A stretch of DNA of 64,000 nt from a virus (taxonomy: Duplodnaviria; Heunggongvirae; Uroviricota; Caudoviricetes). A program made the translations under genes and the position numbers. The stretch is from the IMG/VR virus record IMGVR_UViG_2703718819_000006; one strand, written 5' to 3'. Below are positions 2,382 to 24,163 of this stretch, piece after piece (within the stretch, counting starts at the first letter, position 1; each line of letters opens with the position of its first letter). The notes under the pieces were generated by a model. It was not told where the DNA came from, searched no databases, and saw only the letters and a list, made by a program, of their open reading frames with translations.

Positions 2382-3251
2382 TTATTTTTTGATCATTCCG
2401 TACATTGCTGAGGCTTTAGCTTGCTCAACAAAGGAGGATAAATCGACATCACTATAGGTTGGAGACTTCAGAATCTTTCCATCGGAAATTCGAAAACCGA
2501 TCATCTTATCGGTGCCATCAGCATGGCGAAATCCCAGGTCAGAAGAGTCGTATTTGCAGTTGGCCACAGCATGGCGACGCTCTTCGGCATCTGCAGGCCA
2601 TAATTTTGTCATGTTGGACCGATGAATTTCGCCAACCAGCTCGACGACATTGATACCGAGAAAATCAGCCAGTCGATAAGTCATCATGCACGCCACATAG
2701 ATTTTGTTCATTACACGGCGCAGTTCCTGAATCAGCTCAGAATCCTTAACAGTCTTCTTCTCAAGTTTATCTGCCAGCTCTTCGAGCATACATGACGCCT
2801 CACGAGCTTCCTGAAATGGCATTGCCATATCATCGAAAACAGTGTTACCAGGCACAAAAATTGTCTGCATAAAGCGATCAATGCTCTGTTCCTGCGTGTA
2901 ATAAGTCATGCCGGTAGAAATACCACCTTTGATGGCGACCATCGTACCAACACCAACGTATAAAAAGTCGGCCATTGCATCCAGCAGTTGCTCAATATCC
3001 CCATTCATTGCGGCTGGAATACCTTCCACTACAGCTTCTTCATGAATCAGGCTTGCACGGAGACGAAGCAGCTCTGGTGTCGGCATAACGCGTCTCGGAT
3101 GCTGGAAGAGTTCATGAAACTGATCGACCATCTTGTAAATACTTTCAGTGGCTACACCATGGCCTTCATGCAATTCATATGGTTCTGGCTTAAATCCAAT
3201 GAGTCGATCGGTGGCAAGTTTCAGGTGGTCAGTCAGTTTGGTAAAGTTCAT
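2382..3251 (-). CDS. putative MazG-like nucleoside triphosphate pyrophosphohydrolase (tandem all-alpha domains)
   Basis: 289 aa; two regions with an E-x-x-E ... E-x-x-D acidic pattern (IHEEAVVEG...IEQLLDAMAD; LEELADKLEKK...). Assignment by motif pattern only. Confidence 0.4.
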   Translation of the reverse strand: MNFTKLTDHLKLATDRLIGFKPEPYELHEGHGVATESIYKMVDQFHELFQHPRRVMPTPELLRLRASLIHEEAVVEGIPAAMNGDIEQLLDAMADFLYVGVGTMVAIKGGISTGMTYYTQEQSIDRFMQTIFVPGNTVFDDMAMPFQEAREASCMLEELADKLEKKTVKDSELIQELRRVMNKIYVACMMTYRLADFLGINVVELVGEIHRSNMTKLWPADAEERRHAVANCKYDSSDLGFRHADGTDKMIGFRISDGKILKSPTYSDVDLSSFVEQAKASAMYGMIKK

Positions 3252-17474: not shown

Positions 17475-18299
17475 TTAATATCCGGCGTATTCGTATTCTT
17501 CATTTAGACCGTATTCTTGTGGAGTGATACCAGGACAACATAACTCAAAGGCGAACTTGCGCCATTTGATTTTTTCTTCTGACGATTGTTTGTTATTCGC
17601 CGGTGCAATGTAGTCATATTCCCATTTGCCGTTGCGAAGTAAAATGAATCCGCAGTTATTGCCGAAGTCTTCGTCTGCATAACGTATTACAAACTCAAGG
17701 TGCGGGAACTTTCTAGCCATCGCTTGATAAATTGGTTTTGGCATAGACCAGGCTGTTTCAAAGCGAATCACCAACTCACCACCAGTTGCGGCATGTCTTG
17801 CAAGACGTTTTTTATAGATTCGTTTTGCATATGCTCGAACGTGTGTATGGCGGAAATTATGGCCGTACTTAATACGTGTAGGGATACGTTTTACGGGCAT
17901 TTCGATGTTGTAGGCATTCCATTTTGTTCCCCAATTAGCTCGCGACCAGTCAAACCATGAGTAATAGCCATAGCGACGATAATTCTCAAGCCGCATAAGA
18001 GCCTGCTCTTTGATTTTGCGAATTTCCTTGCGTGTCATTCCTGATTCACGCATAGCTAATTCGATCTGTTCTGGAGTCTTTAATTCACCGAACATGTGGT
18101 CGTAAACTGTTTCGCCCGCCATTGCAGAGGCCATGCGCCTGATATGATTGTTTTCTTCCATTTCTATACTTTTCGGACGTCTGCAAATGGTATTAAAGTC
18201 AATTAGACCTTTTTTGTTAGTTATGGCACGTATGAAATCTAAGCGTTGTTTATTTGTACCACCTATGACTCGGATTTCGTTTGTAATGTGGTTGGGCAT
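17475..18299 (-). CDS. hypothetical protein (Trp/Tyr-rich motif YSWFDWSRANWGTKWNAYN)
   Basis: 274-aa ORF; preceded by an AACAATTTGTT palindrome 20-40 bp upstream. Confidence 0.5.
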   Translation of the reverse strand: MPNHITNEIRVIGGTNKQRLDFIRAITNKKGLIDFNTICRRPKSIEMEENNHIRRMASAMAGETVYDHMFGELKTPEQIELAMRESGMTRKEIRKIKEQALMRLENYRRYGYYSWFDWSRANWGTKWNAYNIEMPVKRIPTRIKYGHNFRHTHVRAYAKRIYKKRLARHAATGGELVIRFETAWSMPKPIYQAMARKFPHLEFVIRYADEDFGNNCGFILLRNGKWEYDYIAPANNKQSSEEKIKWRKFAFELCCPGITPQEYGLNEEYEYAGY

Positions 18300-18350
18300 A
18301 ATTAACTTAACCTTTTAACAAATTGTTTTCTTGTGTGTGATAATAACGAG

Positions 18351-18376
18351 AATAAAACGGCGTCCAACTGGACGCC
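18351..18376 (-). terminator. rho-independent terminator after SPFH gene
   Basis: Stem GGCGTCC/GGACGCC with AACT loop, followed on the minus strand by GTTTTATT. Confidence 0.6.
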
Positions 18377-18394
18377 TGATCTTCTTAATGAGAG

Positions 18395-19225
18395 TTATTT
18401 CACTGTAATGAAAGGAGTGTTAGCCCCTTGAGTCATGTACTGCGGTAACTGGCCATTCCATTTATTGATGGCTTCCAGCTCCATAACGTTCGGGTTTTGA
18501 CGCAGAGCTTCACCGCGCAGACGAATGGCGTCGGCTTCTGCTTGCGCACGAGCACGGATAGCATCAGCTTCACCATTAGCCTGTTCACGTAGCATATTCG
18601 CCTCAGCTTTACGCTGTTCAACTTCCTGCTGACGTTGCAGAGTACGCTGGTTAGCCGTTACTTTGGCGTTGATAGATTCAATGACGGTTTTTGGGTAATC
18701 AGGCTTTCCAACCCATGACAGGCTCAGTACCTCAATACCAACCGGAGACATCTCTTTCTGAATATCTTTCAGTGCGTTGTCCAGCAATTGCGCCTTACCA
18801 CCGTCGATAAATGAGTCAGTGGTCATACGGCTGGCCAAACGGTTTAGAGAGTCGGCAATTTTCTGACGCAGATCTGATTCGGTGATATCGTCTACGCCTT
18901 TGCGATAGGTCTGGAACACCGTCGTTACCTTGTCACGATTAACCAGATACGCAACGCCAATTTTGTGACCAATAGCAGTACCGTCACTCATCTGGAATGT
19001 GAACGGCTCGTCGTAGGTCTTCATTTGTTTGAAGGTCGGGAATACGTAAAGTTCGGTGTTAAGACCTGTCCATTGGCGACCAACGCCAACCACTTCACCG
19101 ATCCCTTTGTCTTCACCTAATTTGTTTACTTTGATGCCAACGTATCCAGGCTCCACGCGATCACAGCCAGTAAGACCCATTGTGCAAATAGCCGCCAGAG
19201 CAACTGCAAGTAAACCTTTCTTCAT
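18395..19225 (-). CDS. SPFH/band-7 (HflK/C- or stomatin-like) lipoprotein
   Basis: 276 aa; signal peptide with lipobox (MGLTGC); SPFH-like core followed by an Ala/Glu/Arg/Gln-rich coiled-coil (RKAEANMLREQANGEADAIRARAQAEADAIR). Confidence 0.7.
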   Translation of the reverse strand: MKKGLLAVALAAICTMGLTGCDRVEPGYVGIKVNKLGEDKGIGEVVGVGRQWTGLNTELYVFPTFKQMKTYDEPFTFQMSDGTAIGHKIGVAYLVNRDKVTTVFQTYRKGVDDITESDLRQKIADSLNRLASRMTTDSFIDGGKAQLLDNALKDIQKEMSPVGIEVLSLSWVGKPDYPKTVIESINAKVTANQRTLQRQQEVEQRKAEANMLREQANGEADAIRARAQAEADAIRLRGEALRQNPNVMELEAINKWNGQLPQYMTQGANTPFITVK

Positions 19226-19228
19226 TAC

Positions 19229-19429
19229 TTATTTCCCCTTTGCTTTGATTAATGAGTTGATAAACTTACGACCAGCAATAAGACCGATTACAGGAGCACC
19301 AAAACCAACGATAACTCCAAACATGACGGCTAAATCACTCTTGGTAGAAATCAGCGACGGAACCAGTAATCCGTAGATGAGAGCCACTGAAAGGCCTGTG
19401 GCTACTGCCAATAGATAGATTTTGATCAT
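19229..19429 (-). CDS. small two-TM membrane protein (possible NfeD-like partner of the SPFH protein)
   Basis: 66 aa; two hydrophobic helices; directly upstream of and co-oriented with the SPFH gene. Confidence 0.45.
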   Translation of the reverse strand: MIKIYLLAVATGLSVALIYGLLVPSLISTKSDLAVMFGVIVGFGAPVIGLIAGRKFINSLIKAKGK

Positions 19430-19491: not shown

Positions 19492-19517
19492 TAAAAAAGG
19501 CGTCCTGTGGACGCCTT
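19492..19517 (-). terminator. rho-independent terminator after recA-like gene
   Basis: Stem AGGCGTCC/GGACGCCT with TGTG loop, followed on the minus strand by TTTTTTATTT. Confidence 0.65.
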
Positions 19518-19521
19518 GTGT

Positions 19522-21861
19522 TTACTCTTCTACTGACTCGGTGGGATTGTCTTTTGATCTCCGGTCGTCGATTGCCTGTAAAGCCGCAATGATTTCAGCT
19601 AGTGGCTTCTCCCGATACATCTCGACGATCTGTGATTTGGTGTATTTCTTGTCACCAATTTCTACTCGACCGCTGGCGTTCTTTGGCAGGTATCCTTCTT
19701 CCAGCATGTACTCGACGAGCGACTCGATAACGTCGAGGCCACGAGTAGGATCGAAGTAGAATTTCCAGGTGCATTTGCCATACGGTGGTGCAACTTTGTT
19801 TTTGATGCACTCTGCGCCTACGTCCTGGCCGATCTTCTCTTTCCCATCCTTCATCACCGATGCACCGAGACGGATGCGCACAGAAGCGTAAAACTTCGGT
19901 GAATCGCCGCCTGGAGACGTAGTAGGGTCGCCAAACATTACACCGATTTTTGTGCGAACCTGATTCAAGAAGATGATGCAGGCGTTGTATTTGCGTGCCC
20001 ACAAAGCCAGAGTAGGGAAGTTCGCACTCGTCGCACGAGCCAGCGCCGTATTGTCGTTCATGTTTAGCTGATCTTTGTCTTTGGCAGTGCCTTCAGCCAT
20101 CTTTTCGAACTTCTCGGCTTTGGAGTTCGGAACCATAGACGCAAGTGAGTCAGCCACGATACAGATAGGTGCTGATTCAGGAATAAGCTCTTCATCACGT
20201 ACCAATTTAAGAATTGTGCCGATCAACTCTACAGAGTCTTCGAAGGTATCAGGCTGCTTGTATACCCACTGACCGTCATCCTCATCTGCATTCAAACCAT
20301 TGGCTACAGCCAGGCCAACGTCAAAACTGTTTTCATGATCGAGGAATACCGCCAGACCATCTTGTTTTTGAGCGGAGATCATCGCTGCTGTTGCAAGGAA
20401 TGTGTTGTGGCTGATAATCCCGTTAGACCAGAAAGAGTGTGTTTCCGGCATCGCTACGTCGAACGTTGGTGCTTCACCTTCCTCAATAGCCACGACTTCG
20501 TCGTAGAACAAGTTAGAGCCAATTACCGCTGCCAGTTGTGCAAACAGATGCTCGTTAAAACGATTCTTTCTGCCAATGAAGGAGACATAGATTTCTCGCA
20601 GTTTGTCTATTCCGACACGATCGCCGCGGCCAATAACGTGGTCTACCAGAGCGTAGTCTTCACGGGTGGTCTTGGTGAGCGACTCGTAGAGTGATTTCAC
20701 TAAGCCGCTGATGTGCGGAACATAGCCTGAGTAAGTGCGGTCAAAACCAATGTCCCGTTTGGTTGCCACTGATAAACGTGCCGGAGATTCGAAACCAATC
20801 GTTGACAGAAAAAGGTCGTAATTAGAGCCACTGAATGACAGCCGGTAATATGTATTTTCATAACCCGCGACGTGTTTTTCAGAGATAGTTGACGTAATCC
20901 CCAGATTCAGGAGCATGAGGCGAATTTGCTGTAGCAGCAGCCCACTCGCGCTCACAACCTCAATGCAGCGACCATCATTGACGTGGCATTCCAGCTCAAA
21001 GTAGCCGCGAAGGAATGCAATTTGAGCCTCGCTATTGGCGCGACGCACACTCAACGGAACCTGCTTGCCAGCAGCTTTCTCATACTCCAGACCATATTCT
21101 TTAAAAAGCAGCGAACGCACCTCTTTGCTAAACAGCACATGGTCTTCCGAGCCGTTATGTTTTCTCGTAACTGGCATCTTGTCTGATACCAGCGAAATGA
21201 GGCGGTAGTACTCATCCTTGATGAAAGGATCTGTGTTAGAAAAATTCACTGAATTTTCAGAGGCCACGTATCCGTCAGCAATTAAATAGCCCATCAGTTT
21301 TGCGATATTGGCATCCAGGTGCTGATCGCCGAATTGATGTGTGCCAACCATTGAAGGAATCGTGTCGCCTACACTGATTTTTTCAGCATGTCGCCAGACG
21401 ACATTACCTAAGTCGTCAACCACACGGATTGGGTGACGGAACGTAGCCTCGATATAACCGCCTGATGCCAGCTTAATACGCTTGAATTTGCGACGGTTGT
21501 TCCATGTCAGGTGTGAGGTCTTCTCTATCACGCCATTTTCATTGATGAGTCCAACGTTATGCTCTACATCGCGAGTAGTGCATGTCGCTTTGTACCCTTC
21601 AATCTCAAACAACTCTTTCACTGTTACCATTCCACGCTCCGTCAGCAGCATGGTGTCTGCGGTAACACATTTCCCCGCGCTTGGAGGACCGAATACTTCT
21701 ACGATACGACCACATGGGAAACCGCCATCGTAACGACCGGAAATAGCTTTGTTTAACGGAGGAAAGCCTGTGTCAATCCAATGAGTTACTTTCTGAATTT
21801 CGTCGTTGCTACCGATTTTCTTTTTCAGAGCAAGTGCCAGTGCGGATTTTCCTTTTGCCAT
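19522..21861 (-). CDS. recA: RecA/UvsX-family recombinase interrupted by an intein
   Basis: 779 aa. Exteins (about 357 aa) carry GRIVEVFGPPSAGK|T and IIFLNQVRTKIGVMFGDPTTSPGGDSPKFYASVRIRL, closely paralleling E. coli RecA as recalled. Confidence 0.85.
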   Translation of the reverse strand: MAKGKSALALALKKKIGSNDEIQKVTHWIDTGFPPLNKAISGRYDGGFPCGRIVEVFGPPSAGKCVTADTMLLTERGMVTVKELFEIEGYKATCTTRDVEHNVGLINENGVIEKTSHLTWNNRRKFKRIKLASGGYIEATFRHPIRVVDDLGNVVWRHAEKISVGDTIPSMVGTHQFGDQHLDANIAKLMGYLIADGYVASENSVNFSNTDPFIKDEYYRLISLVSDKMPVTRKHNGSEDHVLFSKEVRSLLFKEYGLEYEKAAGKQVPLSVRRANSEAQIAFLRGYFELECHVNDGRCIEVVSASGLLLQQIRLMLLNLGITSTISEKHVAGYENTYYRLSFSGSNYDLFLSTIGFESPARLSVATKRDIGFDRTYSGYVPHISGLVKSLYESLTKTTREDYALVDHVIGRGDRVGIDKLREIYVSFIGRKNRFNEHLFAQLAAVIGSNLFYDEVVAIEEGEAPTFDVAMPETHSFWSNGIISHNTFLATAAMISAQKQDGLAVFLDHENSFDVGLAVANGLNADEDDGQWVYKQPDTFEDSVELIGTILKLVRDEELIPESAPICIVADSLASMVPNSKAEKFEKMAEGTAKDKDQLNMNDNTALARATSANFPTLALWARKYNACIIFLNQVRTKIGVMFGDPTTSPGGDSPKFYASVRIRLGASVMKDGKEKIGQDVGAECIKNKVAPPYGKCTWKFYFDPTRGLDVIESLVEYMLEEGYLPKNASGRVEIGDKKYTKSQIVEMYREKPLAEIIAALQAIDDRRSKDNPTESVEE
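20404..21669 (-). mobile_element. intein (about 422 aa) with LAGLIDADG homing-endonuclease domain, inserted in the RecA P-loop
   Basis: Starts with Cys right after GPPSAGK (CVTADTMLL...) and ends ...GIISHN followed by Thr (the extein T of GKT); internal LMGYLIADGY and FLRGYFELEC motifs. Confidence 0.75.
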
Positions 21862-21863
21862 GA

Positions 21864-22136
21864 TCAGGCTCCTTTTGTTTCGTTGATTCGTTTTAAAGCG
21901 GCGGATTCGTCGAATACAATCGCATCGTGGTTAAGGTGTTTGGATACACGAGCGAGGATTTTTACGATCTGCTCGCTGACTAATCCAAACTCGCGATCTG
22001 TCGCTTTCATTCCGGCAGTGCCTAGAATTGACGGCAGTGCGATGACAGCGTACTCACCGTGATAAAAGACAATCTCTTTTGCCAGTTGGGTAGGGGTGGT
22101 GGTAGCGCCATTAATAATCGATTTAAGCATTAGCAA
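21864..22136 (-). CDS. hypothetical protein
   Basis: 90-aa ORF between recA-like and flap endonuclease genes, overlapping the latter by 7 nt. Confidence 0.4.
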   Translation of the reverse strand: MLMLKSIINGATTTPTQLAKEIVFYHGEYAVIALPSILGTAGMKATDREFGLVSEQIVKILARVSKHLNHDAIVFDESAALKRINETKGA

Positions 22137-23074
22137 TACCTTTCGAATGGAAGAACAAACACTTCAAGGTCTTCAAGGAACGAACGGAAATTCAGCTCGT
22201 AGCACAGTTGCTCGAATGCTTTCACGTCACGATTGCCTTTGATTGTTTCGATTTCGGTAGGCGGAAACTTCGTCTCAATCAGGTTCATTAGCGTGATGTT
22301 TCTCTTGAACGCTTCGAGCATTCGACAGCCTGTTTTCTCGTTGAAGGCATTCTTCGCTAGTTTGTTGAAGGCGGTCTTATGACGCCCTTTATTAACCACG
22401 ATTGAGCCGTCGTTGATGCCGCGTACCATCGTTGCGACACTTCCCCATTCATGCAGCAGCTCTTTCGCACCGCCAGCACCAATGCCACCAACACCGCTAA
22501 TGTTGTCCGAGTTATCGCCTTGTAATGCTTTTGCTTCCAAAAATGCGCGAGGCGTGGCGAATCCTGTCAGCTCCGCAAATTGCTCAAAATTAACCTGCTT
22601 GTTTTTGGCGTCTTCACGCAGGCTTACCCAGCTTACGTTTTCGCGAACTAACTGAAGCCAGTCGCTATCGCCTGTTAACAGATAGATGTGTTCAACGGTT
22701 GGCTGCGGTGCCATGCGGGATACCAGCAGCCCGGCCAGATCATCCGCTTCTGCATCTTTTGCAATGATTTGGTTAACACCAAGCGCGGTCATCATTTTGA
22801 GGATGTATGGCTTCTGGATAGCAAAGCCTTCCTTCATCTTTTTCATATCAGGATCGTCGTCGCGATTTGCTTTGTAGTCCGGGTAAAAGTCGCGACGCTT
22901 GTCACTAAATCCATCCCAAAGAATCATAGGTCGGGCATGGAGGATGGAGGCATAACGACGGACGTTCTTAACAAAGCCGAAAGCAGCCTGTACTTCCATT
23001 TCGCCGTTGTGCAATTTGTCAGATTGTTGGTGGTAATAACCCAGGCTATTGCCATCTACGAAGAGATAATTCAC
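22130..23074 (-). CDS. 5'-3' exonuclease / flap endonuclease
   Basis: Motifs YLFVDGNSLGYY, AKDAEADD, LTGDSDWLQL, GVGGIGAGGAKELL. The longest ORF reaches 23125, but a terminator hairpin lies at 23090-23118; a GTG at 23074 with an AAGGAA Shine-Dalgarno is the likelier start. Confidence 0.85.
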   Translation of the reverse strand: MNYLFVDGNSLGYYHQQSDKLHNGEMEVQAAFGFVKNVRRYASILHARPMILWDGFSDKRRDFYPDYKANRDDDPDMKKMKEGFAIQKPYILKMMTALGVNQIIAKDAEADDLAGLLVSRMAPQPTVEHIYLLTGDSDWLQLVRENVSWVSLREDAKNKQVNFEQFAELTGFATPRAFLEAKALQGDNSDNISGVGGIGAGGAKELLHEWGSVATMVRGINDGSIVVNKGRHKTAFNKLAKNAFNEKTGCRMLEAFKRNITLMNLIETKFPPTEIETIKGNRDVKAFEQLCYELNFRSFLEDLEVFVLPFERYC

Positions 23075-23089
23075 CGGTACATTCCTTCC

Positions 23090-23118
23090 AAAAAGTAAGG
23101 CGTCCGTAGACGCCTTAC
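23090..23118 (-). terminator. rho-independent terminator after SSB gene
   Basis: 10-bp stem GTAAGGCGTC/GACGCCTTAC with 4-nt loop, followed on the minus strand by TTTTT. Confidence 0.65.
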
Positions 23119-23134
23119 TGGTCACGTAATGGGA

Positions 23135-24163
23135 TTACAGAGAGTCCAGCTCTCTCAGTAGATCATCCAGACCTTCATCTTCCACCGCAGATGCTGCGGC
23201 TACAGGTGTTGCTGCGACTGCTTCAGAGTCTTTGACTGATACAGCAACGGCAGCGGAACTTGCCTCTGGTTTAAATTCAGTTTCAACGGCACGGAGGATT
23301 TCTTCATCAACCAGACTGGTTGGTTCAGAAGCCGGTGTGTGCGCGGTTGCTACAGCCGTCGCTCCTTCTGTATGACCAGTGACAGAGCCAAATCCAGGTA
23401 GTGCCGCAGCCGATGTTTTCGCGGTTGAGGAAATTGCTGGTGCAGATGCTGCGGCAGTTGGTGCAGCGATGCCAATCAGACGACCCATAGTGCGAACTGT
23501 CGACAGAAGACGAGTTTCATCAGCCTGATTTGCGTATGCGATCAGATCATGCTGGGTGTTCCAGAATTTATCTTCGATATCGCCTTTGTAGACTTTACGC
23601 TTAGGCGAGACGTCATATTTGGTATCGCGACCAGAGCCAGTACGTTTAATCAGGAATGCGTAGCCTTCCTCTTTGCTCAGTGGATTGCCGATATCATCAG
23701 CGATGTCTTCGGTGATTGCTTTGCAGATATCATCGAATACAGTAGACGGCAGCTCGATTAACTGGCATTTCTCAGCATCTGCGAAATCCTCACGAGCAGA
23801 AAGAATGCCGTTGACCAGGTAGCGAGGAGTGGCACGCATTTGACCGATGCGTTCTTCCATTGCTTTGTTACCCTTGTGACGAGCGCGACCTTCCATCACC
23901 ATTTCGCATAGCTGACAAGCGCGACCGTGAGTATGTTGCTCACAAATATAAGCGTTGGTTGCTTCTTTACCTTCCTCGTTCTGATACTTAACGTAGTGCA
24001 TACCGAAAGTCTGGAAGAACTTACCGTTTGGGTCGTCTTTATTCGGGAAGATGCGGATATAGTTGACGCCGTCTTTTAAGCGAGTCAGATCAACGTTGTT
24101 ACCACGTTTGGCGGCAATGTCTTCACGAGTTTTGTTAAGCAAATCAAGTAATGTCTTAGACAT
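23135..24163 (-). CDS. single-stranded DNA-binding protein (T4 gp32-like)
   Basis: 342 aa; GVNYIRIFPNKDDPNGKFFQTFGMHYV parallels the gp32 segment as recalled; Cys/His cluster (CEQHTHGRACQLC); Ala/Ser-rich linker and acidic C-terminal tail (EDEGLDDLLRELDSL). Confidence 0.65.
   Translation of the reverse strand: MSKTLLDLLNKTREDIAAKRGNNVDLTRLKDGVNYIRIFPNKDDPNGKFFQTFGMHYVKYQNEEGKEATNAYICEQHTHGRACQLCEMVMEGRARHKGNKAMEERIGQMRATPRYLVNGILSAREDFADAEKCQLIELPSTVFDDICKAITEDIADDIGNPLSKEEGYAFLIKRTGSGRDTKYDVSPKRKVYKGDIEDKFWNTQHDLIAYANQADETRLLSTVRTMGRLIGIAAPTAAASAPAISSTAKTSAAALPGFGSVTGHTEGATAVATAHTPASEPTSLVDEEILRAVETEFKPEASSAAVAVSVKDSEAVAATPVAAASAVEDEGLDDLLRELDSL

Follow-up and report, generated by a model that had tools for sequence, protein, structure and literature searches.

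An apparently mobile LAGLIDADG intein in the P-loop of a RecA-family recombinase of SSU5-like phage-plasmids

What interrupts the recombinase gene of the viral record IMGVR_UViG_2703718819_000006, and does the interruption still move between genomes? The window, by which we mean the whole 64,000-nucleotide (nt) stretch of DNA that was analysed, is an SSU5-like phage-plasmid of Escherichia and carries at positions 19522-21861 an open reading frame (ORF) of 779 amino acids (aa). From the letters alone, the original prediction had described this ORF as a RecA/UvsX-like recombinase split by a LAGLIDADG intein in its P-loop. The ORF was recovered at its full length and lies on the minus strand, which the original prediction had left unstated. 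Residues 65-486 were found to run from Cys to Ser-His-Asn and to be followed by Thr, exactly as had been claimed (422 aa, window 20404-21669), and excision of these residues in silico left a 357-aa protein with an intact Walker A motif, GPPSAGKT. Very probably, the insert is an intein of class 1 and contains a LAGLIDADG homing endonuclease of the monomeric, double-motif kind. The precursor gene, its exteins and the blocks of the intein are located as follows, invariance being given for the 22 intein-bearing alleles described below.

19522-21861, minus strand: whole precursor ORF, 779 aa, ATG start, stop codon at 19522-19524
21670-21861, minus strand: N-extein, residues 1-64, whose C-terminal GPPSAGK (21670-21690) forms the first seven Walker A residues
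20404-21669, minus strand: intein, 422 aa (ORF residues 65-486), in which a LAGLIDADG endonuclease domain interrupts a Hint splicing domain
21667-21669, minus strand: block A, Cys1 (ORF C65), first nucleophile, invariant in 22/22 alleles
21421-21447, minus strand: block B, ATFRHPIRV (intein residues 75-83) with T76-x-x-H79, invariant in 22/22 alleles
21268-21297, minus strand: LAGLIDADG motif 1, LMGYLIADGY (intein residues 125-134), predicted catalytic Asp132
20986-21015, minus strand: LAGLIDADG motif 2, FLRGYFELEC (intein residues 219-228), predicted catalytic Glu226
20404-20469, minus strand: blocks F and G, PTFDVAMPETHSFWSNGIISHN (intein residues 401-422), with penultimate His421 and terminal Asn422
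19525-20403, minus strand: C-extein, residues 487-779, first residue the +1 Thr (20401-20403)

The residue set of a class 1 intein was found to be complete, comprising Cys1, T76-x-x-H79 of block B, block F, His421-Asn422 and the +1 Thr. The N-extein ends in VFGPPSAGK, the intein starts with CVTADTMLL and ends in GIISHN, and the C-extein continues with TFLATAAM. In ORF numbering the C-terminal junction reads H485-N486/T487, which is the His-Asn pair of class 1 inteins followed directly by the +1 nucleophile, and Thr487 doubles as splice nucleophile and as the Thr of the Walker A motif. Cys65 is also present in all distant relatives of the intein, and the T-x-x-H of block B was found at the equivalent position in relatives. 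Apart from Cys1 the intein contains three other cysteines. By calculation the precursor weighs 86.6 kDa, the intein 47.5 kDa and the spliced product 39.0 kDa, the last agreeing with the expected value of about 39 kDa.

Profile searches bore out the identification as an intein, since the cut-offs of Pfam and of both NCBIfam models were passed. On the full ORF, Pfam Intein_splicing (PF14890) matched over residues 73-486 (2.1e-11) and LAGLIDADG_3 (PF14528) in two stretches (2.4e-17). The intein scored 46.6 bits against PF14890 (cut-off 35.8) and 65.8 bits against PF14528 (cut-off 22.5); the NCBIfam models TIGR01445 (intein_Nterm) and TIGR01443 (intein_Cterm) scored 35.5 bits (cut-off 24.5) and 17.8 bits (cut-off 15.6), respectively. 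Both LAGLIDADG-like blocks that had been noticed are present, each with an acidic residue. Motif 1 aligns with GYLIADG of the TliVMA intein, and in motif 2 the position of Glu226 is taken by the catalytic Asp in the TliVMA and PI-PkoII inteins; across both motifs the intein matches solved structures with an expectation value (E) of ~1e-7. An AlphaFold2 model of the intein, built on ten relatives, reached a predicted local distance difference test (pLDDT) score of 80.3 and a predicted template modelling score (pTM) of 0.84. The top Foldseek matches of this model were all full-size intein endonucleases, namely TliVMA (7qss; 1.5e-20, template modelling score (TM) 0.68) and then PI-PfuI, PI-PkoII and PI-SceI. 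Its splicing domain was matched by GyrA, RadA and DnaB mini-inteins, by VMA inteins and by Hedgehog Hint domains, and its endonuclease domain, which has the alpha/beta fold of this group, by I-DmoI-DNA complexes (E ~1e-4). Similarity to Hint and LAGLIDADG domains, the lack of which had been named as grounds for giving up the idea, was thus seen in profiles, PDB matches and model alike.

The recombinase that hosts the intein belongs to the RecA family. Pfam RecA matched the full ORF in two stretches (3.4e-36), which became one continuous stretch once the intein was removed in silico (2.3e-42), and the spliced extein scored 145.7 bits against PF00154 (cut-off 27). Its best PDB matches are bacterial RecAs (E ~1e-31 to 1e-35), whereas T4 UvsX (3io5) matched with E = 1.1e-5 and other phage UvsX structures with 1e-9 to 1e-10; the protein is therefore not closer to UvsX than to RecA, as a recombinase of the T4 UvsX type would be. 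Within the earlier description of a RecA/UvsX-like recombinase, Pfam and the PDB accordingly favour membership of the RecA family, nearer to bacterial RecA than to T4 UvsX. In PHROGs its label is that of phrog_97, 'UvsX-like recombinase' (1.2e-91), which is a broad family name. Because the spliced extein stays below the cut-off of the NCBIfam equivalog for bacterial RecA (TIGR02012; 153.7 bits against 325.3), it is, as judged from its sequence, a RecA-family phage or plasmid recombinase and a paralogue, not an ortholog, of the chromosomal recA product. When aligned with E. coli RecA, GPPSAGK/T falls on GPESSGK/T, so that the intein sits between the Lys and Thr corresponding to K72/T73 and hence in the P-loop, where it had been placed.

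Alleles of this gene were sampled (n=89) from the window, annotated phage and plasmid records, four genomes and 80 viral contigs, a scan of species-representative genomes having yielded 4 loci and a scan of viral contigs 80, and occupied and empty genes were compared codon-exactly after in silico removal of the intein. The 422-aa intein occupied 22 alleles, all of them with uninterrupted, open 2.3-kb reading frames, and the other 67 were empty, with Lys and Thr always contiguous. The insertion is in frame and at a conserved site, and the 67 empty orthologs precisely lack it. Phage CMS-2020a, for example, carries an empty 357-aa recA whose DNA is 98% identical and whose product equals the predicted ligated exteins except for one residue near the C-terminus, and SSU5 has an empty allele of 358 aa. 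Since natural empty alleles (CMS-2020a, SSU5 and others) equal the predicted spliced product, the intein boundaries are exact, and the anatomy, these boundaries and the intactness of the catalytic residues are established.

A common sequence of the empty site is GCAGGGAAA/ACGTTCCTT. The commonest empty allele of the E. coli lineage (16 copies, among them L011 and L013-L026) has two synonymous differences from the intein-linked flanks, GCA versus GCG and, in the +1 Thr codon, ACG versus ACA. Such alleles may be suitable targets, variants that resist cutting, or alleles from which the intein was lost.

The intein and the gene around it differ in divergence. In comparisons of the window with alleles of the Klebsiella or Enterobacter type, synonymous divergence (dS) was ~0.09 in the intein and 1.1-2.3 in the exteins, and nucleotide identity to Klebsiella phage p4727 was 97% in the intein versus 79-81% in the exteins; by these measures the intein is far more recent than the gene that hosts it. 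Occupied alleles were found in at least four extein lineages, up to ~18% apart, and each of these lineages also holds empty alleles that are only 0.3-1.4% different. The junction GCGGGGAAA/ACATTCCT was present in 22/22 occupied and in 0/67 empty alleles (Fisher p = 2.5e-21, shared ancestry ignored). When each occupied allele is set against the empty one closest to it, the differences cluster within ~10-230 nt of the insertion site: all 11 differences between L086 and L032 lie between -120 and +36, 33 of the 35 between L081 and L030 lie between -102 and +126, and near-site differences between L003 and L062 are limited to -6, -3 and +3. Tracts of variable length that are centred on the site fit the co-conversion expected from double-strand break repair at that point. 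Across the 22 occupied alleles no variation was seen in blocks A, B, F and G or in either LAGLIDADG motif, and the ratio of nonsynonymous to synonymous divergence (omega) of the intein, ~0.15-0.2, points to maintenance under purifying selection. Taken together, presence/absence polymorphism, the younger age of the element and co-conversion of its flanks, in tests that were not corrected for phylogeny, bear the genetic signature of homing that is ongoing or very recent and provide strong comparative evidence for it, with repeated recent transfer between related plasmids. The suggestion of an active or recently active homing intein is thus supported by empty alleles with exact junctions, by a more than 10-fold lower dS of the intein and by the co-conversion tracts.

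Class 1 intein chemistry and LAGLIDADG homing (PMC5790916) suggest how the element would work. The gene would be translated as an 86.6-kDa precursor in which ATP binding is impaired because the P-loop is split, leaving it ATPase-defective, in the way that the P-loop intein of Pyrococcus horikoshii RadA compromises the ATPase until it is spliced (PMC8529194, PMC5790916). Cys65 would perform the N-S acyl shift, Thr487 would attack the resulting thioester, and Asn486 would cyclise with the assistance of His485. The expected products are a 39-kDa RecA with intact GPPSAGKT and the free 47.5-kDa intein. Where an intein-bearing element meets a relative with an empty recA in one cell, the free intein would cut the empty site, approximately GCNGGNAAA/ACNTTYYTN, and recombinational repair would copy the intein and a short variable flank into the cut allele.

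Recombinase genes of this type were detected in 251 of 5,426 complete E. coli genomes, always on plasmids. The intein was present in 120 of these 251 genomes (115 of the 120 copies being full length), never on the chromosome, which corresponds to ~2% of the 5,426. PLSDB contains 731 plasmids with the gene, 248 of them with the intein, at intein-to-gene counts of 123/231 in Escherichia, 71/269 in Klebsiella, 41/85 in Enterobacter, 6/22 in Citrobacter, 1/40 in Salmonella and 0/63 in Yersinia; identity is at least 90% for every PLSDB copy of the intein and 95% or more for most of them. Divergence of the target site was considered as the cause of the absence from Yersinia and near-absence from Salmonella and was rejected, as their sites match the type of a lineage with 7 occupied alleles. 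That these plasmids had no contact with donor elements could plausibly explain the pattern.

Over this region the window shares 97% identity with phage PhiR41_1 and 96.6% with the phage-plasmid Cyrano (pLF82), and the intein DNA of Cyrano is 99.5% identical. Divergence between window and Cyrano varies along the recA exteins, which are thus mosaic. Cyrano produces virions (PMC9928086), and since it does so while carrying the intein, the intein is compatible with a working element.

The insertion point between Lys and Thr of Walker A is a 'classic', common one for inteins (Kelley et al. 2016, PMC5050341), and P-loop inteins are common in DnaB, MCM and RFC (PMC4760082). By its arrangement GPPSAGK/C...HN/T the present intein belongs to this class. 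The TerL1-a intein of mycobacteriophages and the DnaB-b, MCM-a and RFC-a inteins share the Lys/Thr insertion and use Thr as +1 nucleophile, but they reside in different host proteins and have no close sequence relationship with the intein described here. Nearer in setting are the RadA inteins of the archaea P. horikoshii and Thermococcus sibericus, which likewise interrupt the P-loop of a homologous recombinase (PMC5790916); the P. horikoshii RadA intein (4e2t) matches the splicing domain of our model. These, however, are mini-inteins of ~170 aa without endonuclease on the chromosomes of hyperthermophilic archaea, whereas the present one has 422 aa, an intact LAGLIDADG domain and signs of ongoing mobility, and is found in a mesophilic enterobacterial phage-plasmid.

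The RecA intein of Mycobacterium tuberculosis (PI-MtuI, NF007072) is also full-size with an endonuclease and must splice for RecA to function, but it occupies another site: the match of our protein to NF007072 ('intein-containing recombinase RecA'; 100.8 bits, far below the cut-off of 1024) stops at profile position 253, equivalent to extein residue 269 rather than to P-loop residue 64. Its +1 residue is Cys (PMC8529194) instead of Thr, and its splicing domain (2imz) is a weak structural match to the model (rank 49). The architecture of a Hint domain interrupted by a double LAGLIDADG endonuclease that has extra DNA-binding elements is shared with TliVMA/PhoVMA, PI-PfuI, PI-PkoII and PI-SceI. 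These structurally characterised intein endonucleases match in fold (Foldseek 1.5e-20 to 1e-9, TM up to 0.68), but at 10-21% identity, and they reside in other host genes (V-ATPase, ribonucleotide reductase, DNA polymerase), presumably with another DNA target.

Sequence relatives at the same site were found among metagenomic RecA inteins (P0004-P0013; 28-45% identity), which share the RecA position G-x4-G-K/C...HN/T or S and whose host RecAs range from phage-type to canonical bacterial RecA (GPESSGK/TTL, on a 550-kb contig). Bacillus phage fHSPT3 (Herelleviridae; L005 1288-3765) carries a RecA intein of 33% identity at the same Walker A position (GKPGGGK/C...NHN/S). These same-site relatives and the present intein make up a single allelic family of RecA P-loop inteins. 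In P0007 (L093 3001-5166, GCA_027484465.1), P0012 and P0013, whose host RecAs are canonical or divergent, LAGLIDADG motif 1 or a larger portion of the endonuclease is missing, and these inteins resemble the stage of the homing cycle at which the endonuclease degenerates in this family. Helicase inteins of Twort-like Staphylococcus phages and of Listeria and Enterococcus phages were also recovered, at ~31-34% identity (Twort-like ~34%).

Several damaged copies of the locus were observed. In E. coli plasmid p2 (L092 1623-2411, CP059946.1) an insertion sequence (IS), an IS1 of ~770 base pairs (bp), lies inside the intein at about codon 142; it has an InsAB-like ORF, terminal inverted repeats and a target duplication of ~8 bp, AATTTTTC, and disrupts both intein and recA. 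Only the 3' part of the intein and the C-extein were found in NZ_CP162200.1 (L091 2501-3765), beside IS3, IS30 and IS110 fragments and annotated as 'recombinase'; the idea of a natural mini-intein was rejected for this copy, which is a rearrangement remnant truncated by IS elements. NZ_CP075717.1 (H151) and CP057895.1 (H152) likewise hold just the 3' part of the intein and the C-extein. A different case is a truncated recA in IMGVR_UViG_2724678972_000008 (L090, ~2694-3040), where homology to intact alleles begins at gene nt 183, with 10 nt left before the insertion site of the intein. Upstream of that point lies DNA for the N-terminus of an unrelated ORF, possibly PhoH-like by its motif, that ends in ALTFATGEAGCW and a stop codon. 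Two P-loop coding sequences thus appear to be fused out of frame beside the homing site, and the fusion could have arisen by illegitimate repair of an endonuclease cut, by microhomology recombination between P-loops, or as an assembly artefact.

How far does this pattern demand a working intein endonuclease? Several points weigh against that reading. Splicing and DNA cleavage as chemical events are predictions from residues and fold, and the Fisher tests on flank markers treat alleles as independent although they share ancestry. Purifying selection on the exteins mostly predates the arrival of the intein and is therefore weak evidence for working splicing, and the IS1-disrupted plasmid copy indicates that the gene is dispensable for plasmid maintenance, which weakens the case that a need for RecA forces the precursor to splice. 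Elements that reside in one cell could, moreover, exchange the intein and its flanks by general recombination when the endonuclease does not work. In its full form this explanation holds that splicing is intact, that the endonuclease is inactive, and that patchy occupancy and flank tracts stem from ordinary homologous recombination of co-resident or co-infecting phage-plasmids. Such elements recombine often, the mosaic divergence from Cyrano shows as much for the exteins themselves, the degenerate domains of P0007, P0012 and P0013 indicate that endonuclease decay occurs in this family, and cleavage by the present one is a prediction. Against it stand the two LAGLIDADG motifs with their acidic residues, unchanged in 22 alleles, and an omega of 0.15-0.2 over the whole intein, which would be unexpected for a dead endonuclease. 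The exchanged tracts are, in addition, exactly centred on the site and very short, down to the three markers at -6, -3 and +3, as fits double-strand break repair, and in several genera occupancy comes close to 50%, the inteins being at least 97% identical. We regard an inactive endonuclease as unlikely.

Still less probable, in our view, is that the intein has been co-opted as a conditional-splicing switch, the RecA being ATPase-dead in the plasmid state and released by stress or lytic induction, a role that could hold alongside homing. There is precedent in the P. horikoshii RadA P-loop intein, whose splicing is conditional on temperature and single-stranded DNA (PMC8529194, PMC5790916); genotoxic stress induces Cyrano (PMC9928086), and Cys1 and the three other cysteines could in principle form a redox trap. 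However, the intein is missing from about half of the elements, which are near-identical in other respects, and is hence unnecessary for the life cycle; its evolution follows the pattern of a selfish invader, and no sequence feature points specifically to conditionality. That the intein does not splice at all and the interrupted recA is a dead, decaying gene is hardly credible. The recombinase does seem dispensable for plasmid maintenance, as the copies broken by IS1 (L092) and truncated by IS elements (L091) illustrate, but every splice-site residue is intact and invariant, all 22 sampled alleles keep open 2.3-kb frames, 115 of the 120 E. coli copies are full length, and the intein itself appears to be under purifying selection. 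A class 1 intein that splices and homes remains the preferred reading.

A minus-strand cluster that runs from a gp32-like single-stranded DNA-binding protein (SSB) through a 5'-3' exonuclease and a 90-aa ORF ends with recA. Signals and neighbouring genes are the following.

23135-24163, minus strand: gp32-like SSB
22130-23125, minus strand: 5'-3' exonuclease
21864-22136, minus strand: 90-aa ORF abutting the recA start
21869-21874, minus strand: Shine-Dalgarno sequence AAGGAG, with a 7-nt spacer to the recA ATG (from reading the sequence)
19497-19517, minus strand: terminator-like hairpin with a 9-bp stem, 6 GC pairs, followed by TTTTATTT (a consensus match only)
19229-19429, minus strand: 66-aa membrane protein
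18395-19225, minus strand: SPFH/stomatin lipoprotein

The stop codon of the 90-aa ORF (21864-21866) abuts the recA start codon. The strong terminator-like hairpin begins 5 nt past the recA stop codon and suggests that recA is the last gene of a transcription unit SSB, 5'-3' exonuclease, 90-aa ORF and recA. The order of the neighbours (window 17475-19429 and 21864-24163) is conserved in Cyrano and SSU5. No compositional anomaly of the intein was detected: guanine plus cytosine make up 48.2% of the intein, compared with 46-49% of the exteins and 46.2% of the window. A tblastn search found no second intein or related endonuclease elsewhere in the window. Antisense ORFs within the gene were rejected as genes: the longest (119 aa, 20335-20694, plus strand) is broken by stops in 14/22 alleles, and the shorter ones are uninformative because they fall in near-invariant DNA.

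The exact protein occurs on 452 contigs in public collections, and its 90%-identity cluster has 1,496 members. In RefSeq such proteins are named 'LAGLIDADG family homing endonuclease', 'hint domain-containing protein', 'recombinase RecA' or, for Enterobacter copies, 'intein-containing recombinase RecA', and PHROG 9666 models the whole fusion with the function 'unknown'. Fifty-six bacterial RecA inteins, some of them in Proteobacteria, are reportedly included in the tables of Novikova et al. 2016, and the present one may already be counted there. A search of a literature library retrieved no paper on this intein in SSU5-like elements, and the Cyrano paper (PMC9928086) has no mention of an intein.

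The intein is an uncharacterised example of a well-known kind of selfish element, ordinary and of modest interest, and since this kind is textbook material it teaches no new principle. As a full-size, apparently mobile intein of mesophilic hosts, it offers a convenient natural system for homing, co-conversion and the homing cycle in E. coli and Klebsiella phage-plasmids, with a tractable host and both allele states available. Its predicted endonuclease would represent a new LAGLIDADG specificity whose target is the Walker A coding sequence. Naming in the databases is inconsistent and in need of correction, and some of the names hide the fact that these phage-plasmids encode a RecA, which affects comparative genomics and typing. 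There is, besides, a slight chance that the intein is more than selfish, acting as a conditional switch that gates the recombinase between plasmid and lytic states or arming its carrier with an endonuclease weapon against competing intein-less SSU5-like elements in the same cell; if so, such a weapon would drive linked markers through clinical Enterobacteriaceae populations. E. coli is usually treated as intein-free, and the element described here would be a naturally occurring and currently spreading intein in this species.

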